Positions 5,549 to 24,537 of a stretch of 57,551 nt of DNA are shown here, piece by piece; within the stretch, counting starts at the first letter, position 1; the number at the start of each line of letters is the position of its first letter. Source of the stretch: a virus. Its lineage: Duplodnaviria; Caudoviricetes. A program made the position numbers and the translations under genes. The notes below the pieces were generated by a model. The model searched no databases, had not been told where the DNA came from, and saw nothing but the letters and a program-made list of their open reading frames with translations. The stretch spans positions 1-57,551 of the IMG/VR virus record IMGVR_UViG_3300009158_000060; one strand, 5' to 3'.

Positions 5549-5735
5549 ACCGGGGGAGGGGTTTTTTGTTCCCGGGTTGGATGTCGTAAAGATAAAGGAA
5601 CTGGGGCTACGCGCCTCAGTTCCTTACAAGTACCGGACTCAATCCTTTATTGGTATCAGAAAGGGGTTGATAGGTGTATGGTTTTATCGGAAACCTGTCT
5701 CACAGTCTCCGCCACGGCGATCTTTATCTTCCTGA
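5517..5735 (+). CDS. small hypothetical protein
   Basis: ATG 5517, YPWATLKPGEGFFVP motif; overlaps primase end and the 3' end of the convergent giant gene. Confidence 0.5.
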   Translation: MEIIYPWATLKPGEGFFVPGLDVVKIKELGLRASVPYKYRTQSFIGIRKGLIGVWFYRKPVSQSPPRRSLSS

Positions 5736-8700: not shown

Positions 8701-11700
8701 CATGTAACCCGCTGGCTCAGGCACAGGCGGCCCAGATGGCGGGTTGTATTGAAAGTCGTTTACGTCAAGCGCGTCAATAGTGTCTAGAACTTCTTTTGCC
8801 GTGTTGTATGCGTCTTTTGACGCAGGGTTTTCAAAACCTTCAAAGTCTTTTAAATCCTTTTTAGCCTCAACTTTTGTTGCAGCAATAGCTTCTTTCCAAG
8901 TTGGCGGAGTGCCGTTGTTTTCTCTAATAGTATTTTCAAAAACATTTACTGTGTATGCGGCAGCTCTGTTTGTGTTCCACAATTCATGAAACTGTTTGCC
9001 CTTGTAAACCGCATTTACAAAAGGAACTTTTAAATGTTCATCCGCAGTTTCTGCAAACTTTTTAAGTTCTTTAATTTTCTTATCTACTTCTGCAACGGAT
9101 AATTCACGCATCCATTCAACACGCCAACTTGTAGGTTTGGCAATAGGCGTTTTTAACTTAGTGTTCACAACAATAGGTCTGGCAACAGTTCGTGCGGGTG
9201 TTGCAGTTACAGGCCCGTACCCATAGTCTTTAACTGGCAATGCAGATGCGGGTAAAGCTGCTAAAGCATGTTTTGGCCTTTCTTCTTCAATGTTTTCTAT
9301 TTCGCCTTGAACAGCTTCTTTAAAAATTTTATACGGGTTTTCACCGGTTTGCGCGTTATTAACTTCGCGCAAAGGCATGTTTAAAAACTGTTCTGGGATA
9401 CCCGCTGGCAGTTTGCCTGTAAATTCAGGTTCTTGACTTTTAAACCACGCTCTTATGTCTGAACGATCTACCCACTGGTCATACAGGCCACCTGTTTTTG
9501 TAACTGCTTCTACACGGTAATAATCGGCCGTTCCATATCTTTGCCCGCGATATGTTCCCCAACCAAAAGTTTGCATCCCTGAACCAGTACTCATATGTGT
9601 ATGGTCAAACATGTCAAAAGTAACGCCTGTACCGTGCCAAGTTCCTTTGAGTTCAATGTGCGCCGCGCCGTAGGCAAAGTTAACCAAGTCGCCAGCAGTC
9701 AAGTTCTTAGAAGTGATGCCAAACTTTTCAAGCGCTTTTTTAAACGCATCCACCACCATATTCAACCAGTTCTTGACTGCGTTGCCACCTTTAACGCCGA
9801 CAGGCTCAACACCCATCTGCATGGCTTCTTCAACAGCATATGCCAACAACTCATCGTCAATCTGGTGTGGGGGAGTGTTAGCAGCCTCAACCCTGCGCAC
9901 GGCGGCTTTACCAACACGCGCTTCCATTGAGTCTTCAGTTTTGTTTGCCCAGTTCTTAACTGTCTTGACCAACGCGTTGTACTGGCCTTCATTAAAGAAA
10001 TTGCGGAACCCCATGTGCACGCCAACTTCGTGGAGCAGCACGCCAAGTCCGTGACCTTTACCAATGTTGTTGGCAAACAGTACCGCTTTGCCGTTTTGAA
10101 CAAAGCCTTTGGCATTTGTTGGAATCTTGTTGCGCAAATCGTTTCGAGTGACTTCTTTAAACTTGCTCAGGTATTCGTCAAGATTTTCATACACTGCTAA
10201 CTTCTCGGAAACCATTGCCTCAATCTTGCGCCCAGTAACTGGCTCGCCCATACCGGCGGTGAGTTCTGCTTCAAGCTCCGCCTTGGTCAATCCTTTAACT
10301 GGTGTACCACGAGAAAATTCAAAGTCGTCAAACAATCCCATATTGGGATCAACCATTTTGCCTTGCTTACGCTTGCTTGGTTCTTTCAACTGCGGGGCTT
10401 TGGTGCCAAGAATTTGTTTGGCCAAAGCATTGGCATCACGCAATTCAGCGCGATCCATCTCATCCATTTCTGCTGGAGTAAACGCTTTTGCTACGCCTGA
10501 CCCAGTACGGAATGGTTTAGCCGCCGCCAACGCGGCAGTGCTTGGCACAGTAGCTGCCTTGGGTGCTTTAGCTGGCTTGCCTGTAAGGAACACTTCTTTT
10601 TGCGCTTCCAACGAAGCCAGCTTCTGCATAGCGCCCAGCTTGAGCGTTGCCTGTACACGTTTGACGTTGGTTGTCTTGGGGTCGGCCATGATGTCGGCCA
10701 ACTGATTTGTGTCTTCTGGCCCCATGAACGTCTGCACTTCACCACGTGCGTCAAAGATTTCGTCATCAAATATCTGAATCTGTTTGTCTTTGACTCGTTG
10801 AAGTACTGCGGCCTCATCAACTTCTTTTGCCGCCTGCATACCGTTGTCGCGCAAATCATCAAGACGCTTCTGTTCTGGCGTGTTGATGTCTGCAACCTTG
10901 CGGCCTTTTTCAAACACTGCGCCGGGCAAGTCTTTGACGCTGATGCCGTCCTTTTTGAACGCAGCAGTAACCTTGGGCCACCATACCTGCACATTTTTCT
11001 GAAACTCATCCGCACGTTTCTTGGCTTCATCCACAGCAGCTTGCTGTGCTTTTACTTGTGACTCTACGCGTTGTGCAGAGAATGGGTACTTGAGTTTGCC
11101 TAGTTCGCCTGCTCTGCCAGTTTCAACCGCAGTCAAAGGTTCTTTGCGCATGTCTGCCAACTGGCGCTCAAGTAGTTCTAGATACTCACGTTCTGTCTTG
11201 AGGTCTTTGTCCAGCATGGCTTCGGTGACAACAACGTCGTTTTCAATTTCACCAAAGCGGGTTTCTTGCAAGTCGGCCAGTTCTGTTTCAGCGGTCTCAA
11301 TGTTTTCAACAAGCCCTTGAACTTTTTGCAAGTTGTTAATTAAGTTTGGCGCTTGGCCAGTACCCTCAGTCATTTCTTTCTTGGCTGCTTCAATCTGTGA
11401 CTCAACAGTAGCCAGACGTGTCTTGGCCGCTTTCAAAGCACGACGTGCGCGTTCAATTTCAGGATCAAGCAACTCACCCAACGTATCAGACAAACGCTGT
11501 CGGGCTTTGCCCATCGCGGTGGCCATAGCCTTTTGATACGCATTACGCTGGTTCTGAAGTGAAACTTCTGAGTCAAGCATTGCGCGTTGGCCGTCAGTCA
11601 ACATAACTGAGTTACGCAAACTATCTTTGATGAGCTTTAACTTCTCCAGTAGTGGTTCAACAGTTTTACGAGCTGCTTCTGATTGTTTACGCACAGCCGC

Positions 11701-14700
11701 ATTGTTGTCTTGCATCAGTTCAACTAAACGGTTATTTGTGCTTTCAAGACGTTGTCCCAATGAAAGTGCTTGCAAAGCTTGCTTAACGTTCTTTTCGTAC
11801 TCAGGAATCTTGTTTGTGTTGAAGTCTTGGATTAACTTGTTTACTTTTTGTTTTTCTTCCTCAGTAAACACAGACATGTTTTTTTCTTGCTGTTCAGCGG
11901 TCTTACCAATGCCTTGCCTTGATACTTGCAAGTAACGATCCATCAACGCCTTATCTTCTTTGGTAACGCCTGCTTCTGGATATGACGCAAACATTTTTGC
12001 AATGTCTGCATTTGAATACTTGCCAATATTGAAGTCTCCCGGCTTAAGCAGGAAAAACTGCATTTGATTTTTAAGGGCTTCAAGCTGTTCTTCTATTGCT
12101 TCAATTTGCGCAAAACCTTGCTTGTCTCTGGTAGCGCGTGCTTTCTGATTGGCTTCTGTTTTTGCCTTGAGCTTGCGTGCCTGATCCAACGCCTCCCACA
12201 CGGGTTTAATCTCAGGGGACTTGGCAAAGTTGGCCGGTGTGGCACGGATGTAGCCAATGTCTTTGCGTGTTTCAGGGAACAACTGGCCTTGACCTTTTGC
12301 GCCTTCACCAGCAATCTCACCTTCTTGAGCTGTGCTTTCATACAGCTTTATGGCATCTTGAAGCTCACGCAATGAGCTACCCTCGGGTGCCAGCGCGGCT
12401 TCGTAACCTACTGATTTGTATGTACGGCGTTCTCCAAAACGGGTTTCAGCTTCTCTGCCGGGGACATTCTCTACAACGCGTTTGCCGGGGACAGCTTCAC
12501 GGCGGGTGTAAGTTTGCTTGCCGAGGTCTTCACCGCGCAGGATGCGTGCGGCTTGGTTCTGAGCTGCGTCCAACAAAGGCTTGCTGGCTTTGCCGTCTTC
12601 AATGATTTCCTTGACGCGTTCCAGTGCTTCTCGAATACCTTGAGTGCGGATCGGGCCGTCTTCAGTTTCTGTGACCGCGCCTTCTGGGATGTTCCGTGTC
12701 AGCGCCTTGTCAATCATGTTGCCCACGTATTCACGCAGGCGGCGCATCTCTCCACCCGCCGTCTTGGCAGTTTCACCCCGGGCTTCAGCAACCTTCTGAG
12801 CTTCCGTAGTAGCAAACTGCTGTTTTAGCAGCGGTGTTTCACGTGAAACCTGTGATGGCATCTGAGACAGGCTGTCAACAACCTTGGCAATCTGCGCTTT
12901 GAAATGCTTTACTTCTTTGTCACTCAGGCGTGCAATGTCGTTCAACGGCGTGGTAGCCAGATCACGGGTCTTCAAAACACGTTTGGTAACAGCGCCACGC
13001 ACAATCTTGTTGGCTCGCATCTGTGCAGGCTGCACAATTACTTCTTCAAGCTCTGGTTTTTTAGGCACAGCCTGTGCGCGGCTCAACCATTCACCCACCA
13101 CATCATGAATGCGCGACGCGGCTTTGATTGCCTCATCATAGGTTAGTGCGGGTTTACCCGCAACACGGCGGTGGATGGCAGCTTCTTCCAACACCGCAGA
13201 AATGTATTTGCCACGGGCTTCTTCAGCTTGTTGAGCCAACACCGCAGGAGAGGCCGCAGACGCGCCTTGGCCGTACGGCAGTAGTTCTTCTCTGTATTCA
13301 CCTGTTTTTTTATCCAGTATACGTTGACGTTCTTTACCCAACGCATCACCGCGACGCAGACGATCAATCTTGTCTTCAATCGTGTTTAAAGCGGTGTCTT
13401 GCTCGTTGCGTGTGCGCAGTACTTCTTGGGCGTAAACGCTGGCTTGTGGGCTTGTTGCGGCGCTTGGGAACTTGCCTTTTGTCAGGTCGCCAGCAGGTGT
13501 TGGTTCTGCAAAAGCGTTGAGTTGCTCAAGTGCCTGATTACCTCTTTCAAACGCAGCAGTTGCCGCATCGCGGTTGTTTGAGCGCAGTGCGGCATCTCTG
13601 TCCGTATTAGCTTGGTCTATTTCATCAAGCAGTGTGTTTATTTTGCTACGCACACGTTCAGCTTGCTTAGGTTGCGCAAACGGTTTCAACTCAGGGTTTA
13701 CAGCAATTACTGGGGGTTTACCCTCACTTATTTTCTCCAGCTTTGGCTCGACCATGTATTTGAAAAACATGTCATCGCCAACGTCATTGCGCGTATCTTT
13801 GAGGTCGTCCATGTACGAGGTGAACGCCTGCACATGTGGGGATTCTTTTTCTGCGGGTTTAGCGGCACCAAAAGCTGCTTTGCGTGTTTCCATCTCCTGC
13901 TTAAAGCCCGGAGCAATTTGCAACTTCAACGCATCTAAAACCGCAGAGTTACGCACACCGGTAGGCAACCCGGGTAATTGCATACGTTTACTGACAATCT
14001 GATCCGCCAGCATTGGGTTACGCATCAAGTATGAAACGTAGTCGGACACAGCCTCGTTGGGGGCTTTTTCACCGGAAAGTTGTTGGTCATTGGCCAACTG
14101 AATACTCTGGGCAGCATGCTGCGCTGCAATATCCTCTGCCTTCGGCGGCTCAGGCGGCTTGGCAATCTGTTGTTCGTACAGCTCAGGCTCAGCGGGTTTT
14201 TTTGCCGTTTCCTCAGGCTCCATGCCAAACGCATATTCTTGCGGGGTTAACTTGGCAACACGTGCCTGTTCTGCTGCTTGTTTCAGAATAGGTTTGACAC
14301 GCACATACTCATCAGCCAGTGGTTTAAGTTCTTTGTTTATGGCATCAATCTGGCGGTTAACTTCTCGATTGTTTGCGTAATCCGTTTCTGGAGACACGCC
14401 TTTCTTTATTGGAATTAACTGTTGTTTGAGCGCCGTACGCTGGGCTTCCAAGTCCTGCGTCTTCTGGAACACTTCTTGGGCGTACGCTGGGCTGTTGAGG
14501 CGAATCTTCTCTTCTTCCTGCCGCTTTTCTTCATCGGCGCGAAGTTTCTTGAACTCCTCTTGATCTGCGCCACGTTGTTTGCCGCGCTCTTCCCCGCGTT
14601 CAAAATACCTACCAGCAGGGGCCAATGTGCCGCCAAGAACAGCGCCCCCAATAAAGTTATCAAAATACTCACTTCGAGCTTTTTCGTCGGTAATAGACAG

Positions 14701-15504
14701 GCCCGCTTGTAAACGTTCAAACACCTGTTGGCCCGCTTCGGTCAGACCTTCGGTGCCCATTGCCTTACCTGTAGCAAGTGCGTAATCTTTGGCAATTTGC
14801 GCAGTAGATTGCTTAGTAGCCTCCAACAACACTTTCTCTGGAACTTCTTTACCAGCAGCCGAGAAAATTCCACGAATACCGGGGAGCATCTTTAAGCTCA
14901 GTACATCCAACGCAGCCTGAGGAATAGATGCCGCAAACGCAGAGCCAAGAGAAGTCTCACCCAGTTTCTTGCCCTCGTCCATCTGACGGGACAAGTTTGA
15001 ACCAGTGAACTGCGCAGCGGAGGTCAGGCCGGTAGCACCAATACCTGCGGCTTCTCCGGCAGTAAGTAACCCACCAAGCACAGGCGCAGCAGCCGCAGCT
15101 TCTGGTAATGCCAAAGCAGCCAGACCAGCGGCCACAGGCGCGGCCATGTACGGCAAAGACCCGCCCAACAGTTCAGTGGTTTTGGTTAAGGGGGCTTGGA
15201 GCCATCCTTCTTGGGTAGGCGCAAATGTGCGCTTCTTATATTCTTCTTGTTCTTGGATGTACTTCTCAGCCGCAGCTTCATCCATCAATCCGGTCTTACC
15301 GGCCAGCGCAGCAACGTCGCCTTTTAATGAAGCAATCCCTGCTTTGGCGGCAGGAATAAATCCAGACTCAGGTTTAGCTTGTGGTTCTGGGCGCTTAAAG
15401 GCTTCAGGGTACATCTGCTGCGCTCGGGCGTATGCCTGTTCCGGGGTCTCCCCGTCTCTAATTAATACTTGAGTACCGTCTGGTAATGGAACAGCTTGAG
15501 GCAT
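5656..15504 (-). CDS. giant virion-ejected polyvalent protein (zincin-like HExxxH, ART-like and LPD38-like domains)
   Basis: 3282 aa; LLHEVGVH; WHGTG..FD.F...GSGMQTFGWGTY; C-terminal IPFFNAQIQG and RIPVPFEVG..FKALPE; last gene of the structural operon. Confidence 0.75.
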   Translation of the reverse strand: MPQAVPLPDGTQVLIRDGETPEQAYARAQQMYPEAFKRPEPQAKPESGFIPAAKAGIASLKGDVAALAGKTGLMDEAAAEKYIQEQEEYKKRTFAPTQEGWLQAPLTKTTELLGGSLPYMAAPVAAGLAALALPEAAAAAPVLGGLLTAGEAAGIGATGLTSAAQFTGSNLSRQMDEGKKLGETSLGSAFAASIPQAALDVLSLKMLPGIRGIFSAAGKEVPEKVLLEATKQSTAQIAKDYALATGKAMGTEGLTEAGQQVFERLQAGLSITDEKARSEYFDNFIGGAVLGGTLAPAGRYFERGEERGKQRGADQEEFKKLRADEEKRQEEEKIRLNSPAYAQEVFQKTQDLEAQRTALKQQLIPIKKGVSPETDYANNREVNRQIDAINKELKPLADEYVRVKPILKQAAEQARVAKLTPQEYAFGMEPEETAKKPAEPELYEQQIAKPPEPPKAEDIAAQHAAQSIQLANDQQLSGEKAPNEAVSDYVSYLMRNPMLADQIVSKRMQLPGLPTGVRNSAVLDALKLQIAPGFKQEMETRKAAFGAAKPAEKESPHVQAFTSYMDDLKDTRNDVGDDMFFKYMVEPKLEKISEGKPPVIAVNPELKPFAQPKQAERVRSKINTLLDEIDQANTDRDAALRSNNRDAATAAFERGNQALEQLNAFAEPTPAGDLTKGKFPSAATSPQASVYAQEVLRTRNEQDTALNTIEDKIDRLRRGDALGKERQRILDKKTGEYREELLPYGQGASAASPAVLAQQAEEARGKYISAVLEEAAIHRRVAGKPALTYDEAIKAASRIHDVVGEWLSRAQAVPKKPELEEVIVQPAQMRANKIVRGAVTKRVLKTRDLATTPLNDIARLSDKEVKHFKAQIAKVVDSLSQMPSQVSRETPLLKQQFATTEAQKVAEARGETAKTAGGEMRRLREYVGNMIDKALTRNIPEGAVTETEDGPIRTQGIREALERVKEIIEDGKASKPLLDAAQNQAARILRGEDLGKQTYTRREAVPGKRVVENVPGREAETRFGERRTYKSVGYEAALAPEGSSLRELQDAIKLYESTAQEGEIAGEGAKGQGQLFPETRKDIGYIRATPANFAKSPEIKPVWEALDQARKLKAKTEANQKARATRDKQGFAQIEAIEEQLEALKNQMQFFLLKPGDFNIGKYSNADIAKMFASYPEAGVTKEDKALMDRYLQVSRQGIGKTAEQQEKNMSVFTEEEKQKVNKLIQDFNTNKIPEYEKNVKQALQALSLGQRLESTNNRLVELMQDNNAAVRKQSEAARKTVEPLLEKLKLIKDSLRNSVMLTDGQRAMLDSEVSLQNQRNAYQKAMATAMGKARQRLSDTLGELLDPEIERARRALKAAKTRLATVESQIEAAKKEMTEGTGQAPNLINNLQKVQGLVENIETAETELADLQETRFGEIENDVVVTEAMLDKDLKTEREYLELLERQLADMRKEPLTAVETGRAGELGKLKYPFSAQRVESQVKAQQAAVDEAKKRADEFQKNVQVWWPKVTAAFKKDGISVKDLPGAVFEKGRKVADINTPEQKRLDDLRDNGMQAAKEVDEAAVLQRVKDKQIQIFDDEIFDARGEVQTFMGPEDTNQLADIMADPKTTNVKRVQATLKLGAMQKLASLEAQKEVFLTGKPAKAPKAATVPSTAALAAAKPFRTGSGVAKAFTPAEMDEMDRAELRDANALAKQILGTKAPQLKEPSKRKQGKMVDPNMGLFDDFEFSRGTPVKGLTKAELEAELTAGMGEPVTGRKIEAMVSEKLAVYENLDEYLSKFKEVTRNDLRNKIPTNAKGFVQNGKAVLFANNIGKGHGLGVLLHEVGVHMGFRNFFNEGQYNALVKTVKNWANKTEDSMEARVGKAAVRRVEAANTPPHQIDDELLAYAVEEAMQMGVEPVGVKGGNAVKNWLNMVVDAFKKALEKFGITSKNLTAGDLVNFAYGAAHIELKGTWHGTGVTFDMFDHTHMSTGSGMQTFGWGTYRGQRYGTADYYRVEAVTKTGGLYDQWVDRSDIRAWFKSQEPEFTGKLPAGIPEQFLNMPLREVNNAQTGENPYKIFKEAVQGEIENIEEERPKHALAALPASALPVKDYGYGPVTATPARTVARPIVVNTKLKTPIAKPTSWRVEWMRELSVAEVDKKIKELKKFAETADEHLKVPFVNAVYKGKQFHELWNTNRAAAYTVNVFENTIRENNGTPPTWKEAIAATKVEAKKDLKDFEGFENPASKDAYNTAKEVLDTIDALDVNDFQYNPPSGPPVPEPAGYMMRTLHTRPENEYILWDQHADKQTEVVKDAFKRIYDLLDSRQQAVFNRSIGHVRPDRQSGSDLYNALSAVLEQSGMPSELCPMFTSEMLHAEGVAGVKFFDAVSRHASLYTAAPGTYNYVDFSDKDEGAQIIATDINPVSQTQPRQKGEMLFSRSAEYTNPEIAKHSEFVDKIVAKQKGWSEKIKANATGLAFETQLVDRFAGFERLAKYMEPLKGTQMLYYLRMYDQRMNFVSQAISNGAPAITEKTRPDGRVERVLESKESANIHNVVQILKDAQPMVGNAEAVNRQFTMYMASIRAGNKGLSSLNFGEGVTQELLNDTMAAIKATPGLEDVFKRARDEYNAYNRNLVNFVVSTGALSKDVAKRLLSENDYIPFYRERNGVAELVIGSESPIRIGSIAEQPYLHELVGGENPILDFLTSSVQNTNLLMDMGMRNLATKNAVHELVDLNAAKFVKISSGTNVVKFRVDGEDRYAVLATEKVKIGNKEFDTGVPADILVKGMEGIPTQMPAMLRVMAMPSLLLRKAITISPLYMAKQLFRDSVAAPIISGADFMPVIGALKELNSSTKQTLERRGITGGQQFTGGAADLTKILRDVSEGKPGWMSALGKLEAMGMEADATTRRAQYNSYINQGLSEMEATLLALESMNFNKRGASPSIHVANALIPFFNAQIQGLNVLYKASMGKMPFNDQLRIREKMLQRGAMMAVASLAYAALMQDDDAYKNATPDQKYGNWFVRIPGLDEPVRIPVPFEVGYIFKALPEALYNSMVNEHGGEEAVQAFKQILLQTIPGGSSYGIPQIMKPAIEAGLGKSFYTGRDILSAREKQLLPEEQFRANTSELAKSVGKALGISPIVFEQLISGYTGTMGTAFMHALSVGIPASETPEQAVKRLSDYPIVGGAFQPNDAGGIINNVYERMNENLKVKHTFDQMVKEGNMSGAMGLLQRRGNEYMQADMANKFKANMNKLTQAERAIAASNMSPEEKRAQLDSIRKIKIAVAETVRQVSDKTIHLSTPF

Positions 15505-15580: not shown

Positions 15581-17182
15581 TTACGGACGAGCGTTGGGGG
15601 CTGCTGGTACGGCAGTTACTGTGGGCGACACACCCATTATCCGAAGATAGTCGTCGATGTTTGGGTACTTGGCTTGCAAGTAAGGGTCTGTTGCCCACTT
15701 GTCTCGGTGAACAGCATCCGCACGCATACCGGTTGCAGCCGTCTGTGACTCCATGTGTTTCTTGAACAGCTCGGGGTTGCGGTAAATGCGCTCCAAACCA
15801 GTAGGTGCGTTTGCTTGAACTTGTGTACGTTGCAATGCTGCGGCATCCGCTTGAGCTTGTTTGGCAAAATCTGTTTTTGCTGTGAACATTGTGCGCTCAT
15901 TCTGCGCATTCTCTTTGAGCTTAGTTTCAAAGATGCCTTTGGCAGTGTCCGTATCAACTTGGAATATCTTGGCAATACCCTCAATGGTGCGGTTCTTGGC
16001 GGTGCCAAGTGCATCAATACCTTTGGCTTGCAACTCAGTGTGCGCTTTAAGGTCACCACGTTTTTCAGCATTTCGGGCAGCTTCAATATCCCCAAAGGCT
16101 TTATCACGTTCGCGCTGGGCTTTCTTTAAGTCTTTCAACGCCGACTGGTAGTTATCCAGTCCAGCCAACGCGCCCTTGCCAATGTTTTCAAACGCGTATT
16201 GAGAAGTGCCAGACATCATGCCCAAACCTGCTTGAAAGATAGACATGCCCAAAGCTTTGTCTTTGTCGGTGGCGGCTTCGGCTTCTTCTTTTTTCAAACG
16301 CTCTTCATAGCCTTTATAGGCCTCAGGCATTTCAGAAACTTTTTTGTCGTAGTCACCAAGCAACTTGTCGTAGGCTTTGGTTGTGAAAGATTCGTTTGCT
16401 TCTAACTTGCCGCGCAACTCAGTTGAATCACTTAAAGCCGCTGCTTCAGCTTTTGCTTGTGCAGGAGTTTTTGCAGTGGTATCCAGCGCAGTTATTCCAG
16501 CCATTGGGTCAACAGGCTTTACCGGTTTAACTATTGGTGCTCCTGCGCTGGGAGGTGGCACTGCGCCCGCACCGGGAGGTGGAACTGCTCCTGCACCGGG
16601 AGGTAAAGTACCCGCGCCAGTCTGTGCCGCAGGCATTCCCGGAGGAGTAAAGGTTGTGCCAGCGGGGAGTGTGTTGGATGCATTCTCTTTAACGCTTTTT
16701 AAATACGCATCCGTGGCACTAAGCGGCATCGGGTTGTTTTTGTCGTACTGTTTTGCTTCGCGGTACGTTCTACGAACGCCAGACTCAGGAGGAAAAGCTT
16801 TAAGCCATTCAGGAAGGTCTTCTTCCCCTGTGCTGCCGCCGGGGCCAAACGCAACGATACCGCCTTCAGCCATACCCTGCATGTTCTGGGCTGGAAGTTG
16901 GCCAATGCCTTGATCTTCTGGAAGCATCTGTTGCTGCGGAGGAGCCATCCCTTGCTGTGGGGGAGGAGCCACCATCTGGGCAATCTGCTGGTCAGCCACT
17001 TTGGGCTGCGGCTGCATTCCCGCTTGGCCCTCTTGTCCGGCCTTCATCTGTTTCTTCTGGTTTGCAATAGACAGCGCCAGCGTCACAATGTAAGGATCAT
17101 TCTTGTGCAGTGCAGCATACTGCTGCAACTGCGGCAACTGCATGCGGGACATCGTATCGGTGAGGGTTTTTACGTTAAGCAT
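15581..17182 (-). CDS. internal virion/ejection protein
   Basis: 533 aa, Q/P-rich, MAEGGIVAF motif, amphipathic QAGLGMMSG segment, position before the giant protein. Confidence 0.6.
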   Translation of the reverse strand: MLNVKTLTDTMSRMQLPQLQQYAALHKNDPYIVTLALSIANQKKQMKAGQEGQAGMQPQPKVADQQIAQMVAPPPQQGMAPPQQQMLPEDQGIGQLPAQNMQGMAEGGIVAFGPGGSTGEEDLPEWLKAFPPESGVRRTYREAKQYDKNNPMPLSATDAYLKSVKENASNTLPAGTTFTPPGMPAAQTGAGTLPPGAGAVPPPGAGAVPPPSAGAPIVKPVKPVDPMAGITALDTTAKTPAQAKAEAAALSDSTELRGKLEANESFTTKAYDKLLGDYDKKVSEMPEAYKGYEERLKKEEAEAATDKDKALGMSIFQAGLGMMSGTSQYAFENIGKGALAGLDNYQSALKDLKKAQRERDKAFGDIEAARNAEKRGDLKAHTELQAKGIDALGTAKNRTIEGIAKIFQVDTDTAKGIFETKLKENAQNERTMFTAKTDFAKQAQADAAALQRTQVQANAPTGLERIYRNPELFKKHMESQTAATGMRADAVHRDKWATDPYLQAKYPNIDDYLRIMGVSPTVTAVPAAPNARP

Positions 17183-17191
17183 GAGTGTTCC

Positions 17192-18181
17192 TTACTGCAT
17201 TTTCATCAGTGCCAGCTCAGCCAAACCTGCTGGGCGTTTCTTTTCTTTGACCGCGCCGCCTTTAGCTTTTCCCACAGTTGAACTGCCCATCTGAGACAGG
17301 CCGTAGGCTGCGGTGCCAAGACCGGCCAGTTGAGACCCCACGCTTGGCGCAGCTTGATAAACACTTGTGCTGGTGTTTTGCATGGGCATACCCCGTGTCA
17401 AGGCGCTCATGTTGGCCAACTGCATCATCGGGTACTGCTGTGCAGTAGCGTAATCTTGAATCTGTTGGTTTATCTTTGACTGCTCAAGCCCTTGTTGCTG
17501 TGCACCAAGTTGGTTTTGCAAACCAATTAAACCTGTTTGTTGGCCAAAGCCAGTGTTGTACTGTTGTTGAGCTTGGTTGAATGCGTTTTGCATTCCCGTT
17601 GCCATGATGTTGGACTGGGTGTCGCCAAGAGCGCGTTCGCGTTCCGCACGCATGATCGCGTCGCGCCCACCACCAAAAGCGCCTGCTTGCGCGGCTTGGG
17701 CTTGCTGTTGTTGCCCTTGAATAGCAGATTGTCTTGCGGCTGCTTGCATTTGGGGTTGAAGCGCATACTCTGCGTACGGTGACATGTACGCGCCAACATC
17801 TTGCTGAAACCCTTGTGGCCCAGCCTGCATGTTTTGCGCCTGCTGTTGCGCCTGCTGTTGCATGGGAGAGAACCCAGCAAAATATGCGTTAGGGTCTGTG
17901 TTGAAAGGCTTGTACGCTTTTAAACTTGTCGGGCTTTCCGTAATTGGCGTGGTTCCGGTTTGTTTTCCCCGGCTGTTGTATATCGGGTCGCCGCCTGTTT
18001 TACCGTAGTTAAACAACTCTTTTTGCGCAGAGCCAAGCATCTGCTCAACGTACGGCTGCGCATACTCAGGAATGTTTGAAGTTTGGGAGTACGTAGTATT
18101 TGGCCCACCACCTCCGCCACCACCACCCCCAAAACAAAATGTGGGAATGAAAAAATTAATAATGCTGCGCAGCTTAAACAT
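17192..18181 (-). CDS. internal virion/ejection (pilot-like) protein
   Basis: N-terminal CF followed by poly-Gly; YMSPY and AGAFGGGR motifs; Gln-rich; Gly/Ala-rich C-terminal helix. Confidence 0.65.
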   Translation of the reverse strand: MFKLRSIINFFIPTFCFGGGGGGGGGPNTTYSQTSNIPEYAQPYVEQMLGSAQKELFNYGKTGGDPIYNSRGKQTGTTPITESPTSLKAYKPFNTDPNAYFAGFSPMQQQAQQQAQNMQAGPQGFQQDVGAYMSPYAEYALQPQMQAAARQSAIQGQQQQAQAAQAGAFGGGRDAIMRAERERALGDTQSNIMATGMQNAFNQAQQQYNTGFGQQTGLIGLQNQLGAQQQGLEQSKINQQIQDYATAQQYPMMQLANMSALTRGMPMQNTSTSVYQAAPSVGSQLAGLGTAAYGLSQMGSSTVGKAKGGAVKEKKRPAGLAELALMKMQ

Positions 18182-18626
18182 CTAAATGCTCCTTGCGGTA
18201 ATCGTCAAACCGCTCAAAAAAAATTGTTTTCCACATCTCAGGCAAACACTCTTTGGCTTTTTCTGGGCCAACACAGACATGGACGGCATAAGCCATGATG
18301 TTGCCAGCAGCGTACCGAAGACCGTGCGCAATTTCAAGCCCATGCGCATCTTTGTTTGTTTCAAAAAAGTTTGCCGTTTCGTACGCTGATACTACCGTGA
18401 GCCACATAGGTAGTATCTCATTCTGAATACTGCGGTAAAACGGGTTGGCAGGCAAGTACACAAGGCAAGTCAAAAACGCTTGGTTAATTTGATTTGCAGA
18501 TACAGGACTATCTTTGTCTACTAGATCGTCCCAAATATGTGCCAAGTCAGCAAAGGCGTGGAACATCCGCAAAGCATCTTCATTGCCTCCGAACCATTCC
18601 AACTTGCCTTCTTTTTGGTTGTTCAT
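18174..18626 (-). CDS. small isoprenoid-synthase-like (DDxxD) protein
   Basis: AHIWDDLVDKD resembles the first Asp-rich motif of trans-prenyltransferases; predicted helical; overlaps both neighbours. Confidence 0.5.
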   Translation of the reverse strand: MNNQKEGKLEWFGGNEDALRMFHAFADLAHIWDDLVDKDSPVSANQINQAFLTCLVYLPANPFYRSIQNEILPMWLTVVSAYETANFFETNKDAHGLEIAHGLRYAAGNIMAYAVHVCVGPEKAKECLPEMWKTIFFERFDDYRKEHLDV

Positions 18627-20251
18627 GCCAAGTACTTTTCAGGGTTGATCTGCTTGCCTTGTTTCTTGTTGCCAGTACGCGCCTGACGAACTCTATCCAT
18701 CATCTTGTACAGCACCTTGGCACCAGCTTCTGAGGAGCCATTACCGAGGTGGGACACGACATCGGCAGGTACTACAAACTCTTCGTTGGCCAAGCGTGCT
18801 GGCTGCTTGTTGGCGATTGTCGCAGGAATGTCGTCAGACATGCCATCTCCCGGCCCTTTGAGCATGCGCCCACCACGAGCATAGTCGGAGTAACCACCCA
18901 GATCAGCCAGACCGCCGTGTGCGTAGTTGGGTCTATACGGTGTTGGCTGCACGGGTTGGTATCCTGTGTAGTTGCTGCCATTCCATGTGGACTTGTACTT
19001 TTCTTTTTCGTATGGTTTGGGGCGATTCAGCATCTCGTATGCACTAGAAGCCAGCATGCCTGTCATCAACTTGTTTGGCAACGACATTTTTGTAAAATCT
19101 TGCCAAGCACTTTGAAGTCCACCAACTTCTGGGGCAAGGGCACCTGAACCAATTGTTTGTGGGTAAATTGTTTCACCTGAAACAGCTTTTACCGGTTCCA
19201 TTCCTCTGTACGCTTCTTTCATTGCATCAGCGTATTCCGGCGTTGTTTCAAACGGCTGCAACGTATTTGCGCCAAAGTTTGAAACATTGCCAGCAACTTG
19301 GGCGGGTGTACTACCGACAGGGGAAAACGGTGTTTTGGCTACCGCTTCCTGATAAACCCCCGGATTCATTCCTTCGCCTGTCAACGCCCCCCGTACTTGC
19401 ATTTGGGTGAACTGATCTGCGCCAACCGGATTAACCGCTTGAGTTACCGATGGTGGGGGTAGGTTGGAACCCAGTGGGCCGCTTAAATTTGTTTGCAACC
19501 CTTGTAGTCCCGATTGCGCATATGTGGGATTAGCCATTGGTGCCGCAGGATTAAAAGTTGTCGGTAGGGTAGACGTAGGCGCACCAGCGCCATACTGTGT
19601 CAGCGTAGATGCGGGGGTATTAAACGCGCTTGTTGCGCCAACTTCGTTTGCCAATGCTTGAATACCGCTTAGATTTTCAAAACCGGCAGTATCAAACCCC
19701 CCCGAAGTACGCAAGGGTGTAGATGTCGCTTGAACTGGGTTTGAAGGGTTAACTGGAGTAGTTGCCGCAGATTCAACAAGCGGTTCAGCAGGGGGAGCGC
19801 CCGTATAGCCATAGTTGGAAGGCGGCATAGCCGGTGGAGCAGGAGGCGGAGCAGTAGGAGCAACAGGAGGTGCCGCAGGAGGCCCAGCAACAGGAGGTGC
19901 CGCAGGCGGTGGAGCTTCAAACGGATTGACCACCTCTCCAAAGTTGCTCATTGAGCCGGGGCCGGTGTATGTATTGACCGCCAAATCCGCAAGCCCTCCA
20001 CCACTGGGAGAAACGGGGTTCAAATTTACTGCGTCAAGCACAGATTGGTTTGTAGCCGTTTGTGCGGCTTGCCCAGCAGCCTGTGTAGCGGCTTGTTCGG
20101 CGGCAGCTTGTGCGGCGGCTTGTTCGACTGCGGCTGCGGTAGCGGCTTCGGCTGCGGCTGCGGCAGCAGCTTCGGCTGCTGCAATCTCTGCGGCAGTCAT
20201 TGTGCCTGCAACGGCTCCTTCTGCTACTAATGGTATTGCTGCTTCTGGCAT
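18623..20251 (-). CDS. internal virion/ejection protein
   Basis: Ala- and Pro-rich N-terminus; C-terminal GPGDGMSDDIPA...ARLANEEFVVPADVV domain. Confidence 0.6.
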   Translation of the reverse strand: MPEAAIPLVAEGAVAGTMTAAEIAAAEAAAAAAAEAATAAAVEQAAAQAAAEQAATQAAGQAAQTATNQSVLDAVNLNPVSPSGGGLADLAVNTYTGPGSMSNFGEVVNPFEAPPPAAPPVAGPPAAPPVAPTAPPPAPPAMPPSNYGYTGAPPAEPLVESAATTPVNPSNPVQATSTPLRTSGGFDTAGFENLSGIQALANEVGATSAFNTPASTLTQYGAGAPTSTLPTTFNPAAPMANPTYAQSGLQGLQTNLSGPLGSNLPPPSVTQAVNPVGADQFTQMQVRGALTGEGMNPGVYQEAVAKTPFSPVGSTPAQVAGNVSNFGANTLQPFETTPEYADAMKEAYRGMEPVKAVSGETIYPQTIGSGALAPEVGGLQSAWQDFTKMSLPNKLMTGMLASSAYEMLNRPKPYEKEKYKSTWNGSNYTGYQPVQPTPYRPNYAHGGLADLGGYSDYARGGRMLKGPGDGMSDDIPATIANKQPARLANEEFVVPADVVSHLGNGSSEAGAKVLYKMMDRVRQARTGNKKQGKQINPEKYLA

Positions 20252-20252
20252 A

Positions 20253-20564
20253 TCAAACTCCTCGTTTCATCACAACAAGCCCTTGCTTGCGACTAAGTTC
20301 TTTGAAGCCAAACATGGCTATCAGTTTCTGTGCTTTGACATCGTTCTCAAAGGGTGTAGCATACACTTCCTTGTAACTTTTGTCTCTCAAAAATGGCAGG
20401 ATTTGCTCTGCAAAGATGCCTTTGTACCGCTTGAATTTGGCCGGTGACCACGCTCCGGGGTTGAAGTTCAGATGCAGGGTCACCTTTGTTCGGTTGAGTA
20501 TGTAGTCGCACAGGACTCGCGCATCTGCATCTTCGTATATCTTTTCTCTTACTGGCGGCATCAT
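20253..20564 (-). CDS. GNAT-like acyltransferase (T7 gp13-like position)
   Basis: VYATPFEND.KAQKLIAMFGF resembles GNAT motif B; lies between the tail stabilisation gene and the ejection genes. Confidence 0.5.
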   Translation of the reverse strand: MMPPVREKIYEDADARVLCDYILNRTKVTLHLNFNPGAWSPAKFKRYKGIFAEQILPFLRDKSYKEVYATPFENDVKAQKLIAMFGFKELSRKQGLVVMKRGV

Positions 20565-20872
20565 GTTTTAATCTTCAACACGTTAGATGCTGTTGTGTCG
20601 TAGTAAATATCGCCAACCCGCAAATTGGCTGTATCAGCTTGCGTTGGCAAGCTAAGTATAAACGTATTCGGCACTGTTGGGCTGGGCCGGACAAAGCTTA
20701 AAGCAGCAACAATATCTGCTCCGTTAATTTCTGTAGCCGCCGCAATCGGGCCAACGTTGTCTAGTTGGTTGAAATATAGCCGCAAGCTTGCAAGCAGCTT
20801 GTCCATATACTGGCGGTCGTACTCATCCGGCGGTAACGGTAGGTTGGGTGCGCGAACATTTTTTGCTGACAT
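20561..20872 (-). CDS. virion structural protein
   Basis: PNLPLPPDEYD..LRLYFNQLD; C-terminal GDIYYDT; coupled to neighbours. Confidence 0.55.
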   Translation of the reverse strand: MSAKNVRAPNLPLPPDEYDRQYMDKLLASLRLYFNQLDNVGPIAAATEINGADIVAALSFVRPSPTVPNTFILSLPTQADTANLRVGDIYYDTTASNVLKIKT

Positions 20873-20874
20873 AT

Positions 20875-23466
20875 TTATCTCCTGCCGTCAGGTCGGATGT
20901 CGATACGAGGCGCACCAAGCTGCCATGTCGTACCAATCTGATTAGATGAAATCTTCAAAGACATCTGGCGACCGCGCACTCGCGTGTAAACCTGTCCAGT
21001 GAACTGATCTACGGTGTATGTACCGATGCGGTCTACGTTGGCGTAGCTGACCCCGCCAACCGATTGGTTGGCTGACTCCACCGGGTCGTTGTACCCAGAA
21101 CCCGAATTCTGAAGCGGCAGTAAGTACATGGTGACCTGCGGAGTCAGTCCTGTAGTAGACGACCCCCGGAAGGTAAGGTCAGGCACGATGCGCCAGACAA
21201 ACCCAAAATTGTGTCCGTCTCCAATGTCATACTGCGATGAGGTGATGTACGCCTCTATGGCTTGAGTTGTGTCGGTGGTATTGTCGTCAATTCCATACTC
21301 ATGGAACACCAAGTTGTAGCTGTACGTTGCCGCCAGCGGGTAATTGGTCAAGCCAGAATCCAGCCAAGCTGTGCGGCCCATTGAGCCGTAGTACCAGACA
21401 TCTTCAGCATAGTTATACACAACGTAGCGGTCGATGACCGTAGAGCCTGATGTGCAGTAAAACCACCAGACTTCGTTAAAACCTTCATTCGTACCAGCAA
21501 AGAACTGAGATTGCTGGTCAAGGTTAATGTCGCCGTAGATAAATTGACGCAGGTCGCAACGGAGGGTGGCAACCCGACCATCGTACTTATAGAACTTGTC
21601 TACACCCATCCAGTACACCACACCAGATGCAATGATGGCTGTGTTATATCCGGCTATGGATGTGTTGTCGCCCAGAAGTTGTGTGCCCCACACATAGGGT
21701 GGGCCAAGGTACTGCATAGAGTAGATAGATGTGTCAGTGAACACAACAATCTCTTGCCGCGCCTGCACTGCTGTCAAGATTTGAGAGCCGTGTGATAGAC
21801 GCACAAACCCCGCCTGATTGGTTACCGCAGGAGTCCAGTTGACTACAGACTCTTGGTCAGACCAGCGGATCAGCATAGGGTCTAAGTCGCCGCCACCGTA
21901 AGGCGTGCAGCCAAATGCAATCGTGAACCGGCTGGTATCTGACACCATCATGTAGTTCACATAAGCAGGGACATTAGATGCCCCTGAAAGCTCGGTTACC
22001 GCAATGCCGTGAGGATAAATTGTGTGCGTGCCGGTCTGTGTTCCGGTCAGAACAATCAAGTCACCGCCTGATGTGGCTGAGATATTGAATGTACTACCAG
22101 AGAAGTTGTTGACGTAGTACGTTGTGCCAAGCGTCATGCCTGTGGGTAAAGTGCCTGTGCTGACAATTTGGATAGCCGTATTGTTGTTCAGCGTACCAAG
22201 CGCAGTGAACGTGGCGGGGGTAAAAATTGAGATCGTGCCTGTGCCTGCGCCTGTTATGTTGATTGCAGCACCGCCCACAGTCGTGGCAAGCTGCGCCGTA
22301 GCTGCTACGGGGTTCACAATGTAGTACACCGTATTTGCAGTCAGACCGCCCGGAACCGTACCGGTAGATGTGAGCTTGACGGGCGTGCCGGTAGCAATTG
22401 CTGTTGAGAACGTGATGTACTCGGTAATCGTATTGACTGCGGATACTGTTTGTGAGTTCAGCGTGATTGTGACGCCAAGCCCAGTTGTCCCAATATAGCC
22501 TGTCCAATAATACAGGGGGCCACCACGGTAACCAAAAACTAAGTCCTGACCAAAGTTGTTTTGATACCAAAGACGAGCCGCAGCAGTACCAGACTGCCCT
22601 GTGCCCCATGATCCTGAACCCCATGAGCCAGCGCCCCACCCAGTAATTGGCTGCGCATCGTCTGCGCCCACATGGATTTCATAATTGGCGTTGACTGTGC
22701 CACCAGCACCTGTGTCATAAGTTCCCGCCACAACAGGCGTGGTGATGGTGAATGAATCAGCATCAATGACAGTGACGGCAAAGCTGCTGTTCAGTACATC
22801 GGCTGTTAAGTTAGTGTTTACATACAGAGAGAATGTGCCTGTACCTGCTGTAGTTGTACTGACTGCCGCACCGCTTGGTACGTTGGCAAACTGGATTGTT
22901 GTGCCGGACACCACTTGTATATAGTACTGATACCCCGTAATCAACCCGGTTGGCAATGCGCCTCCCGCAGATACTGTGAGAATTACCGGCGTGTTGGCAG
23001 CAAGCGCAATGGACAGTACAAAGTTGGTGGCGGTCGAGCGTGTAAACGTCTGCGTACTGAGAGCTACCGCGCCCATGAAGTTGACGTAATCTCCTGTGGT
23101 TGCGCCATGCGCAACATTTGTCACAGTCACTACGGCAGAGCCAGCAGTAGCGGCAAACGGGCCGCTCAAGCCGTTTGCATAAGAGCGGATAGGCGTGATG
23201 TCGTTGTACTGACCGCCCTGCTCAATATAAAACTTCAGGTATGTACCAACCCCAACATAAACAATACCGCCCAGCGATGCCCATGACCACAATGATCGGC
23301 AAGTGCCTACGTATGTGTATGCAGAAATCCTGTCCCAGCCACCGATCTTCTCAGGCGTACCTTGGCGAAAGCGAATCTTGTCGCAGTCATACCAGCCACC
23401 TTCGTTGGTGTATCGGGTGTTCTCTTTGTTTACACCGGGCTTGAGCTGTATCTTCTGTAATGGCAT
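20875..23466 (-). CDS. tail/packaged-DNA stabilisation protein (P22 gp10-like beta-propeller) with inserted beta repeats
   Basis: PEKIGGW, IRWSDQE, NEVWWFY, RGRQMSLK motifs; three LPxGL..GTxYY inserted repeats. Confidence 0.7.
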   Translation of the reverse strand: MPLQKIQLKPGVNKENTRYTNEGGWYDCDKIRFRQGTPEKIGGWDRISAYTYVGTCRSLWSWASLGGIVYVGVGTYLKFYIEQGGQYNDITPIRSYANGLSGPFAATAGSAVVTVTNVAHGATTGDYVNFMGAVALSTQTFTRSTATNFVLSIALAANTPVILTVSAGGALPTGLITGYQYYIQVVSGTTIQFANVPSGAAVSTTTAGTGTFSLYVNTNLTADVLNSSFAVTVIDADSFTITTPVVAGTYDTGAGGTVNANYEIHVGADDAQPITGWGAGSWGSGSWGTGQSGTAAARLWYQNNFGQDLVFGYRGGPLYYWTGYIGTTGLGVTITLNSQTVSAVNTITEYITFSTAIATGTPVKLTSTGTVPGGLTANTVYYIVNPVAATAQLATTVGGAAINITGAGTGTISIFTPATFTALGTLNNNTAIQIVSTGTLPTGMTLGTTYYVNNFSGSTFNISATSGGDLIVLTGTQTGTHTIYPHGIAVTELSGASNVPAYVNYMMVSDTSRFTIAFGCTPYGGGDLDPMLIRWSDQESVVNWTPAVTNQAGFVRLSHGSQILTAVQARQEIVVFTDTSIYSMQYLGPPYVWGTQLLGDNTSIAGYNTAIIASGVVYWMGVDKFYKYDGRVATLRCDLRQFIYGDINLDQQSQFFAGTNEGFNEVWWFYCTSGSTVIDRYVVYNYAEDVWYYGSMGRTAWLDSGLTNYPLAATYSYNLVFHEYGIDDNTTDTTQAIEAYITSSQYDIGDGHNFGFVWRIVPDLTFRGSSTTGLTPQVTMYLLPLQNSGSGYNDPVESANQSVGGVSYANVDRIGTYTVDQFTGQVYTRVRGRQMSLKISSNQIGTTWQLGAPRIDIRPDGRR

Positions 23467-23468
23467 TT

Positions 23469-23810
23469 TTAACCCACGTTGCGCTCAAAGTGAGGGCAGT
23501 CTACAAGGTTGGAGAAATTCCCGCCCCAACGGTTTTTGGGGTGAAGTGACTCCCAGTATGCGCCCAACGGAGCAATGGTCGCCTTGTCCCAGATTATCTT
23601 CCCATCCTTGAAGAAGTTCAAGTCTCCGGCGCACCGCTTAAGGTGGATGGACTTCATGGTCTTTGAGCGGCCTGTCTTGAAGTAAATGGCCTGCTGCTCA
23701 GGTGTACGGGCAAGCTCACCAGCAGTCACAACAAAACCCTGCTCTGTTGCGTAGGTGACGAGTTTGCAGAAGTCCAGCAAGAATGCGGCTTGTTCGGTGC
23801 TTAAGCTCAT
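23469..23810 (-). CDS. endolysin, M15-family (L-Ala-D-Glu-type) peptidase
   Basis: RTPEQQ, SIHLKRCAGD (SxH..D), RWGGNF..VDCPHFE. Confidence 0.85.
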   Translation of the reverse strand: MSLSTEQAAFLLDFCKLVTYATEQGFVVTAGELARTPEQQAIYFKTGRSKTMKSIHLKRCAGDLNFFKDGKIIWDKATIAPLGAYWESLHPKNRWGGNFSNLVDCPHFERNVG

Positions 23811-24028
23811 TTTTCTTCCTCATCATGGGACAGTTTCACGCCAGCCAACAACCCAATAAACCCGCCCACAATGGTTTGAAATGCCGGGCTAATCAGTTTG
23901 AAGATTTCAGCGTTGTCCACTTTTTCGTCAAACAAGCCCATCATTAAAACGCCAACCATGCTGATGATGACAACGCACAAAGTGAAGCTGACCATCAGCG
24001 TTACAAAAAAAGTTAGTTTTGCCTTCAT
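23807..24028 (-). CDS. small membrane protein (holin/antiholin candidate)
   Basis: two hydrophobic segments, adjacent to the endolysin. Confidence 0.55.
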   Translation of the reverse strand: MKAKLTFFVTLMVSFTLCVVIISMVGVLMMGLFDEKVDNAEIFKLISPAFQTIVGGFIGLLAGVKLSHDEEEK

Positions 24029-24537
24029 TTTTTGCCTTTCAGTTCAGCCAGCTTTTCAATGGTTCTGCCACCGAAGTATGCGCCCATTATCAACATTCCC
24101 CACTGTCCAAGCAAGGAAACGTAAGACTCATTGGCGTTTAAACCAAAGGCCGACATCATGGCAAACAGGAAGTACCCGCAGAATATAGCAATCAGGGACA
24201 TGGGGCGGATGTTCTTGGACAGCCAAGAGTCTGATGCCATGTCGGCTTGCCAGCGATCCGTAACATTGTCGGCATCGCTTTGCGCAGCCTTGGCAAACAT
24301 CTCCATCTCAGCCAACTCCATCTTGGCCTTTTCAATGCCAAGCTCAAGGAGCTTCTCCTCATGGGCAAACTGCAACTCACGCAGCTTGGAAACATCTTCT
24401 GAGGTTGGATTGTCAGGAATCTTCACGCCCAGCGTGTTCTCAACGACTTCTTTGCCTTTGGCTTGGATGGCAGACGACAGTAAACCCAGCCCGTTTTCGG
24501 CAAGTGTGCCAAGAAGTGATGCAATTAAAGGCAACAT
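24025..24537 (-). CDS. holin (GTA 3TM-holin-like)
   Basis: SDSWLSKNIRP and AYFGGRTIEK motifs with transmembrane segments. Confidence 0.7.
   Translation of the reverse strand: MLPLIASLLGTLAENGLGLLSSAIQAKGKEVVENTLGVKIPDNPTSEDVSKLRELQFAHEEKLLELGIEKAKMELAEMEMFAKAAQSDADNVTDRWQADMASDSWLSKNIRPMSLIAIFCGYFLFAMMSAFGLNANESYVSLLGQWGMLIMGAYFGGRTIEKLAELKGKK

Follow-up and report, generated by a model that had tools for sequence, protein, structure and literature searches.

Small enzyme-like genes ahead of presumed ejection protein genes in the late operon of an uncultured podovirus

Introduction

In the section of Hardies et al. (2016, PMC4819975) on internal virion proteins (IVPs), IVP-A (gp13 of T7) is described as a small protein that is required for morphogenesis without being retained in the virion; HHpred matches it to acetyltransferases, and its gene directly precedes that of IVP-B (gp7 of P22). 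The same IVP-A/IVP-B pair is given there for P22 and epsilon15, while in phiRIO-1 IVP-A is replaced by an unrelated small family, gp39, presented as an 'alternative to IVP-A' whose novel sequence was known only from phiRIO-1, PA11, and CW02. In the P22 record, gene 14 ('virion stability factor', 151 amino acids [aa]) lies directly before gene 7. Both that section and the P22 record describe IVP-A (T7 gp13, P22 gp14) by its position and its role in morphogenesis, and neither assigns it an activity or reports an enzymatic function. We analysed a 57,551-base viral record (IMG/VR IMGVR_UViG_3300009158_000060, hereafter the window), judged to be about 90% complete, and concentrated on two small genes of its minus strand, one encoding 103 aa (20253-20564) and the other encoding a 150-aa protein with a DDxxD motif (18174-18626), each of which lies directly before the gene of a presumed ejection protein.

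The best explanation for this region is that it is the head of a T7/P22-type internal virion (ejection) protein operon of an uncultured podovirus. By analogy of position, both small genes would fill IVP-A-type helper slots, and the 150-aa protein is the first example in such a slot of a large, undescribed family marked by a conserved acidic cluster (WDDLIDxD, E89, R104). The best reading of this protein, which we favour tentatively, is a helper of enzyme-like character that acts on the ejection protein encoded beside it. Both the IVP-A slot and the replacement of its gene by unrelated ones were already known; a large DDxxD family as occupant of the slot, its alternation with a GNAT-like protein, and the GNAT-like fold predicted for the gp39 family are new. 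An initial annotation, made from the sequence alone, had proposed a lipidation system, a subset of this reading, in which each ejection protein would be directed to membranes by the product of the gene ahead of it, through prenylation by the DDxxD protein or acylation by the GNAT-like one. It missed the published IVP-A frame, and its interpretation as a whole was supported in part.

Results

The open reading frames (ORFs) that follow the gene of an 863-aa protein encode, in order, 103, 103, 542, 150, 329, 533, and 3282 aa. The second 103-aa gene (20253-20564, slot 1) is separated by a 1-nucleotide (nt) gap from the gene of the 542-aa protein (18623-20251), which overlaps the 150-aa gene (18174-18626, slot 2) by 4 nt; the 150-aa gene in turn shares its last 8 nt with the start of the 329-aa gene (17192-18181). 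This is the order, with the abutting or overlapping junctions, that had been annotated. The flanking genes are equally tight (the first 103-aa gene, at 20561-20872, overlaps its neighbour by 4 nt), and abutment alone is therefore ordinary for a phage late operon and says little.

The 329-aa protein, rich in Gln, Gly, and Ala, starts with MFKLRSIINFFIPTFCF, a 17-residue leader that ends in CF and is followed by nine glycines (18104-18181, minus strand), exactly as first described. Its homologue at L146:6550-7599 (42% identical) matches phrog_4287 'DNA ejection protein' (E 2.5e-21), and we infer the label 'ejection protein' from this homologue, from the low-complexity composition, and from the position upstream of a giant protein with an LPD38 domain. 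A tblastn search of phage records with the 329-aa protein found none. The 542-aa protein (A 17%, P 11%, G 10%, no Cys) had no Pfam or PHROG match; we presume it to be an internal virion (ejection) protein, and its C-terminal domain is conserved, with a homologue just upstream of slot 2 in related loci.

The occupants of the two slots were then compared in 139 viral loci, 80 of them gathered with the 150-aa family as seed and 59 with the slot-1 103-aa family. After removal of 38 incomplete loci (without a match to the 542-aa or the 329-aa protein) and 12 duplicates, 89 were usable. Slot 2, before the Gly-run protein, held a member of the DDxxD family in 62 loci and a member of a 135-aa family in 27, and was empty in none, a 'never empty' pattern that comes partly from the seeding of the loci and from shared ancestry. 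In all 80 loci seeded by the 150-aa family the next ORF begins 4 to 58 nt ahead of the DDxxD stop codon (4 to 26 nt in 78 of them) when its start is taken as that of the longest ORF, a choice that favours overlaps. The pairing of the 150-aa gene with a Gly-run protein, as initially claimed, is conserved in 80/80 loci. Slot 1, before the 542-aa protein, contained the 103-aa gene in 28 loci, was empty in 43, and contained other genes in 13 (84 scored; 5 of the 89 were unscorable). The claimed pairing of the 103-aa gene with the 542-aa protein is absent from most relatives that keep the latter (present in 28/84).

The 135-aa family looks GNAT-like from its sequences: its nearest named clusters in the ESM-Atlas are all viral Acetyltransf_1 (0.91-0.94), with the ten best named matches in a single clan, it matches phrog_1249 'acetyltransferase' (E 0.0015), and it keeps a GGKG loop. 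Comparison of this family with T7 gp13, P22 gp14, and the slot-1 103-aa family by hhalign was non-significant.

Among the other occupants of slot 1 is a protein of about 107-117 aa with an H-x-H...H pattern (L012:3724-4074, L013:4164-4514, L015:4051-4401, L022:2805-3128, and L037:1872-2225), which to the eye looks cupin-like, as do larger ones in L067, L075, and L078. Another, of 125 aa, is GNAT-like by eye and ends in ...RFCERLGFVK (L048:3471-3848, L076:3732-4109); the 542-aa homologue that follows it starts with a leader (MRIPNKFNGY or MIRNKYNGY) of a type otherwise found on the 329-aa family.

The high variability of slot 1, including cupin-like and further GNAT-like proteins, is what would be expected if these genes encoded packaged effectors, that is, solo polyvalent-type enzyme domains carried in the capsid and injected to act on the host, with the slots as cargo hot spots. 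In the part of Iyer et al. (2017, PMC5512222) that deals with such domains, solo GNATs among late structural genes are reported and capsid deployment is suggested; moreover, the operon of the window ends in an LPD38 polyvalent-type giant, and the methyltransferase fusions of the DDxxD family described below resemble mini-polyvalent proteins. However, slot 2 was empty in 0/89 loci, the DDxxD gene stays coupled to the Gly-run protein in distant phages and prophages, the cellular homologues are found beside secreted adhesins and not in defence islands, and T7 IVP-A is not retained in virions according to the IVP section of Hardies et al. (PMC4819975). We consider an effector role quite unlikely.

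The only PHROG match of the 150-aa protein was phrog_21390, whose function is not named (E 1.2e-23); there was no Pfam or NCBIfam match, and tblastn against phage records gave a single match, Achromobacter phage CF418P1, whose homologue has 157 aa. The DDxxD family is large and has no Pfam or named PHROG: 1217 candidates gave 1206 clusters at 90% identity, and at 50% identity there are 665 representatives (E<=1e-3). The Asp motif of the window protein, DDLVD, was confirmed at residues 33-37 (codons at 18516-18530, minus strand), within a family consensus WDDLIDxD. The initial annotation had made its case depend on conservation of these aspartates, and they are conserved. In an alignment of 77 diverse members, whose identity to the window protein is 25-58%, D33 and D37 do not vary (77/77), and W32, D34, D39, N61, E89, and R104 are conserved in at least 90%. 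Judged from this alignment, the Asp motif is more than chance. A second DDxxD was not found in the 77 members; residues 138-143 show only a loosely kept [ED]xxx[DE][YF].

Two longer members differ in architecture. In P0261 (315 aa) the DDxxD domain occurs twice in tandem, each copy with an intact WDDxIDKDK motif, a hint that this domain may function as a pair. P0297 (270 aa) has about 120 additional aa at its C-terminus, a domain for which no family could be detected; comparison of its C-terminal 121 aa with the slot-1 103-aa family was non-significant (P 0.068).

The AlphaFold2 model of the 150-aa protein has six helices (pLDDT 95.5, pTM 0.88). DDLVD lies at the C-terminal end of helix 16-37, as the first Asp-rich motif of isoprenoid synthases does. 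In VIA, a structure search independent of Foldseek that covered 48,161 chains, isoprenoid-synthase folds made up 10/10 of the top rows and 31/50 of the top 50, with 131-148 of the 150 residues of the model aligned in the top 10. These rows comprise prenyl diphosphate synthases, prenyltransferase domains, MoeN5, and class I terpene synthases, a hint that the sole solved folds resembling the model are trans-prenyltransferase cores. Foldseek found nothing in the PDB (best E 1.6) and only four uncharacterised family members in BFVD, and the family profile found nothing among PDB sequences (best E 0.058, Utp20). The named ESM-Atlas neighbours included HEPPP_synt_1, polyprenyl_synt, and DUF2600, at 0.76-0.77, a range often reached by chance. 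The Pfam profile PF00348 (polyprenyl_synt), which matched 14/14 control genomes, had no match in the whole window record. An all-alpha, MazG-like nucleoside triphosphate pyrophosphatase was considered and rejected: a single, weak row pointed to it in Foldseek (2yxh_A, E 5.6), and no row did so among the top 50 of VIA.

The prenyltransferase-like character claimed for this protein was thus supported by the VIA ranking but not by Pfam, by hhalign (non-significant, see below), or by a second DDxxD, and we regard it as a consistent but unproven lead from the model. If the weak structural resemblance is true, the 150-aa family would be a minimal isoprenoid-synthase fold.

A domain of the S-adenosylmethionine (SAM) methyltransferase type was found, at either end, in 5/12 longer DDxxD-family matches that were scanned (in P0308 only below the Pfam cut-off). 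P0393, which is 58% identical to the window protein, is also a SAM methyltransferase fusion, and in a Polaromonas prophage (L084) a methyltransferase-DDxxD fusion occupies slot 2. The best NCBIfam match of the fused domains (P0322, P0341, P0381, P0387, P0308, and P0393) was 'DVU_1556 family methyltransferase', with E values of 1e-7 to 4e-12, below the cut-off; weaker matches were to CFA synthase, GPP 2-C-methyltransferase, and UbiE, which are lipid or small-molecule methyltransferases.

The DDxxD family was also followed into 18 bacterial genome loci, found with an alignment of closer homologues. Several are prophage-like (Limnohabitans, Desulfovibrio, and others). In two prophage-like loci of Desulfovibrio (L094:5962-6474 and L097:5935-6480) the DDxxD gene is flanked by a gene of terminase size and a portal gene of the T7 type (Head-tail_con, E 1e-122, in L097); in L094 the ORF ahead of it, of 90 aa, has a hydrophobic start and a run of GGG. 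The DDxxD homologues of Halomonas, Billgrantia, and Alcaligenaceae (L087:4324-4797, L091:5971-6456, and L092:1753-2250) come right after a giant RTX/VWA adhesin gene, as checked with Pfam; in L087 and L092, LapD-type (LapD_MoxY_N, GGDEF, EAL) and LapG-type (Peptidase_C93) genes are found beside them. By eye only, L086, L088, L089, and L090 have similar adhesin neighbours and L098 has at least a LapD-type neighbour. These adhesin neighbourhoods of the cellular homologues (in Halomonas, Billgrantia, Vreelandella, and a metagenome-assembled genome of Alcaligenaceae) provide a non-phage context for the family.

The AlphaFold2 model of the 103-aa slot-1 protein (pLDDT 85.5) has the order b-b-b-a-b-a-b-b without N-terminal helices. 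Foldseek gave 45 PDB matches at E<=1e-3, of which the listed rows were GNAT acetyltransferases, except the antizyme 4zgy_B; the GNAT matches had E values of 7e-5 to 1e-3, query-normalised TM-scores of 0.5-0.66, and targets of 140-196 aa. The GNAT-like assignment made from sequence is borne out by this predicted fold, which would be a truncated one: the protein is without the N-terminal b1-a1-a2 arm of a complete GNAT domain (about 150-170 aa). The pyrophosphate/coenzyme A (CoA)-binding loop of GNATs, between b4 and a3, reads Q/R-x-x-G-x-G/A. The corresponding loop here is NPGAWS, outside this usual motif, and its G37, A38, and W39 are invariant in 31 sequences of the family. GNAT Pfam profiles had no match to the window protein, and one of the 31 members touches Acetyltransf_4 (E 0.1).

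This slot-1 family forms 127 clusters at 90% identity. When it was aligned by hhalign with gp39 of phiRIO-1, the probability was 84.2% (E 7.3e-6, 83 columns, query residues 8-93 on 3-86 of 96), and on this alignment we take the 103-aa protein to be a homologue of gp39. Both genes precede that of an ejection-type protein. The gp39 family, published from three phages, here comprises 127 clusters with a predicted truncated GNAT-like fold, and may be a cut-down IVP-A rather than an unrelated substitute.

These properties of the 103-aa protein, the missing arm and a loop that misfits the GNAT CoA motif, would suit a non-catalytic assembly chaperone. Under that explanation, the small proteins bind the ejection protein and escort it into the procapsid, and the acidic cluster of the 150-aa protein is a binding or metal-stabilised surface. 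The conserved position of the slot in related loci fits as well, as do the descriptions of T7 IVP-A only as a morphogenesis factor and of P22 gp14 only as a 'virion stability factor' (IVP section of PMC4819975; P22 record). However, a chaperone gives no reason for four near-invariant Asp together with Glu and Arg at 25% identity, with leaders of unrelated types on the partner, and it leaves unexplained both the repeated fusion to SAM methyltransferases and the substitution of another enzyme fold in which a GGKG loop is preserved. We judge the chaperone to be somewhat unlikely. The acidic cluster, the methyltransferase fusions, the in-situ GNAT-like replacement, and the adhesin context all favour an enzyme that tailors the neighbouring translocated protein.

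The N-terminus of the 329-aa protein was compared with those of its relatives. Of 106 distinct N-termini, 87 contain GGG among their first 50 residues. The leaders ahead of the Gly run are of several types (MFKL..., MLIPNKFNGY..., MFNFLKWLF..., and others), and the common MLIPNKFNGY type reads as basic and hydrophilic; some homologues of the 542-aa protein are headed by a leader type of the 329-aa family. In these sequences the conserved feature appears to be a leader followed by a Gly run, and neither a hydrophobic leader nor a Cys. Two features that the initial annotation had emphasised, the hydrophobicity of the leader and the cysteine of its CF end, are therefore not general: Cys is present in the leader of 3/106 N-termini.

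ComQ is a related prenyltransferase, and the acceptor residue of its ComX peptide is Trp. An acceptor of this type, which the comparison with ComQ had implied, is not conserved, with Trp in 38/106 leaders. The bacterial lipobox is L-[AS]-[GA]-C; a lipoprotein signal on the 329-aa protein was rejected, the window reading P-T-F-C-F without a lipobox and the Cys not being conserved. Covariation of the leader with the upstream gene, as specific recognition would produce, was rejected also, with leader types shared between the two upstream families. A complex prediction that paired the 150-aa protein with residues 1-100 of the 329-aa protein, the partner's own fold being uncertain, scored 0.01 (mark 0.32), which bears on binding in neither direction.

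These N-termini bear directly on the proposed lipidation system. Donors of the acyl-CoA and prenyl-diphosphate kinds would make GNAT-like and DDxxD proteins interchangeable in slot 2, as seen; the nearest folds are prenyltransferase cores, including MoeN5, which transfers a prenyl group to an acceptor other than isopentenyl diphosphate (IPP); and the Gly run could become an N-terminal Gly after removal of the leader, as gp7 of P22 loses 20 residues (in the P22 record, 'N-terminal 20 amino acids cleaved by host OpdA protease'). Against it, the leaders have the Cys and Trp counts given above, no invariant column, and no lipobox; the 150-aa protein is half the size of any known prenyl synthase and has no second DDxxD; none of the homology statistics reaches significance; in most relatives the 542-aa protein does without the 103-aa gene; and by term search, the text of a 2022 review of ejection proteins (PMC8954989) does not mention lipidat-, acylat-, or post-translational. 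Our literature search turned up no publication that connects ejection proteins with prenyl transfer or lipidation, and nothing relevant on phage proteins of the DDxxD isoprenoid-synthase fold. We regard lipidation for membrane targeting as very unlikely. The same holds for its fuller form, a long shot in our view, in which podovirus ejection proteins are lipidated before packaging by interchangeable enzymes of the IVP-A slot, on a Gly-rich N-terminus exposed after leader removal.

Several results weigh against the broader reading, an enzyme-like helper in an IVP-A-type slot, in addition to the limits on the ORF starts and on the filling of slot 2 given above. By hhalign, the 150-aa family had no sequence link to T7 gp13, P22 gp14, or gp39. 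The 103-aa and 135-aa families had no detectable sequence relation to T7 gp13 or P22 gp14, and PF11090 (T7 gp13) and PF11039 (P22 gp14) were unmatched in the window record at E<=1. 'IVP-A' is therefore used here as a positional analogy. The 329-aa family had no homology to P22 gp7, T7 gp14, or phiRIO-1 gp38 detectable by hhalign; when it and both the N-terminal and the C-terminal part of the 542-aa family were compared with T7 gp14, P22 gp7, P22 gp20, and phiRIO-1 gp38, every result was non-significant, and neither family is therefore designated an IVP-B homologue.

Isoprenoid Pfam families were matched by 0/77 members of the 150-aa family, even at E<=10. Alignments of polyprenyl synthases (10, then 39 sequences) were built from genomes G001-G045, reached through the related loci; the best local hhalign alignment of the 150-aa family with them fell exactly on the first Asp-rich motif, with P values of 0.086 (10 sequences) and 0.07 (39 sequences) and a probability below 1%. 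No column was invariant in 60 aligned N-termini of the 329-aa family, and the MLIPNKFNGY leader type was common to both upstream families (25 with DDxxD, 12 with the 135-aa family); the shared leader types and the lack of an invariant leader residue therefore argue against specific recognition of the leader.

The remaining genes of the late operon, which occupies the minus strand of the window and contains head, lysis, virion-protein, and ejection-type genes, include those of the terminase (42122-43660), the portal (39629-42115), the major head protein (36019-36948), a holin (24025-24537), and an M15 endolysin (23469-23810). The nearest cultured phages, by portal protein, are the Pelagibacter phages HTVC027P and HTVC023P (42% identity), and a nucleotide search of 17192-20872 against phage records gave no match. 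Upstream of the module, the 863-aa protein (20875-23466) matches phrog_3287 'virion structural protein' (E 6e-58). The other 103-aa protein (20561-20872), between it and slot 1, is conserved: at least its N-terminal part follows the 863-aa homologue in most related loci. It contains a strongly conserved ...LRLYFNQLDN... segment and in relatives forms the N-terminal part of proteins of 110-213 aa; from these sequences, it may be an anchor module for a variable tail or fibre protein.

Downstream, the 533-aa protein (15581-17182), rich in Ala, Lys, and Pro, is a presumed internal virion protein in the position of IVP-C; it had no Pfam or PHROG match, and in some loci partial homologues were seen downstream from that of the 329-aa protein. 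The 3282-aa giant polyvalent-type protein (5656-15504), last in the operon and in the position of IVP-D, contains Pfam LPD38, a phage polyvalent-protein domain (E 5.4e-31). A HExxH-type sequence, HEVGVH, was seen by eye at its residues 1825-1830 (10015-10032, minus strand) and suggests a possible zinc metallopeptidase domain. The part of a preprint on phage phi24B (10.64898/2026.04.10.717836) that concerns its LPD38-bearing 2811-aa protein reports a zinc metallopeptidase domain in this giant, which was found in virions by proteomics and was proposed to be an ejection protein.

Discussion

The slot holds at least three unrelated enzyme-like folds: GNAT-like, truncated GNAT-like, and DDxxD helical, the last often fused to a methyltransferase. 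Chemistry carried out on the ejection proteins would account for this pattern more readily than a simple chaperone. In the mechanism that we favour, the 150-aa protein would be a metal-dependent enzyme made late in infection, which would act on the ejection protein encoded immediately downstream, before or during packaging. Its probable target would be the N-terminal leader and Gly-run region of the 329-aa protein. Its role would be that of the 135-aa GNAT-like protein in sister phages, supplemented elsewhere by the fused SAM methyltransferase. As to the donor, the modelled fold hints at a diphosphate-bearing (prenyl) compound.

If true, this mechanism would bear on the way in which a conduit through the membrane is formed from soluble proteins kept in the capsid, and the 150-aa and 329-aa proteins are a testable pair. 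Should the donor and acyl chemistry be those of the lipidation hypothesis, improbable as we find it, the DDxxD family would be the smallest known protein prenyltransferase of the isoprenoid-synthase type, acyl transfer would fall to the GNAT-like proteins, and secreted adhesins would be modified in the same way by the homologues next to Lap-type RTX adhesins. N-myristoylated penetration proteins of animal viruses, such as picornavirus VP4 and reovirus mu1N, which are armed for membrane insertion, would be a parallel.

Comparison with trans-isoprenyl diphosphate synthases (HepPPS, HexPPS) and MoeN5 shows several differences from the 150-aa protein. Those enzymes have about 260-350 aa, whereas this protein has 150. 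The synthases enclose the active-site cavity with about ten or more helices, and this protein has six. They carry a second DDxxD or an NSE/DTE motif on the opposite wall, which is lacking here, and they serve the isoprenoid pathway, whereas the 150-aa gene is part of a virion operon. RTX toxin-activating acyltransferases of the HlyC/ApxC type are another point of comparison, with a small transferase gene beside the large Gly-rich secreted protein that it modifies. Their likeness to the 150-aa protein, whose cellular homologues come after RTX/VWA adhesin genes, is by analogy only, and the fold differs; we know of no modification of Lap-type adhesins by a 150-aa-like protein.

The module also recalls the solo domains of polyvalent proteins in the corresponding part of Iyer et al. 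(2017, PMC5512222). There, domains of the GNAT and methyltransferase types occur among late structural genes, and here they likewise lie beside an LPD38 giant. Tight coupling to one ejection gene is not described in that text, in which the terms prenyl- and terpen- were not found.

The arrangement also resembles that of the IVP-A systems. The IVP-A genes of T7 and P22 (gp13 and gp14, 138-151 aa) and the 150-aa and 135-aa genes are all placed directly before an ejection-protein gene, although the 150-aa protein is all-helical while IVP-A is acetyltransferase-like. On the side of the presumed substrate, gp7 of P22 reads KGGKGG after its leader, the same layout as the leader and Gly run of the 329-aa protein.

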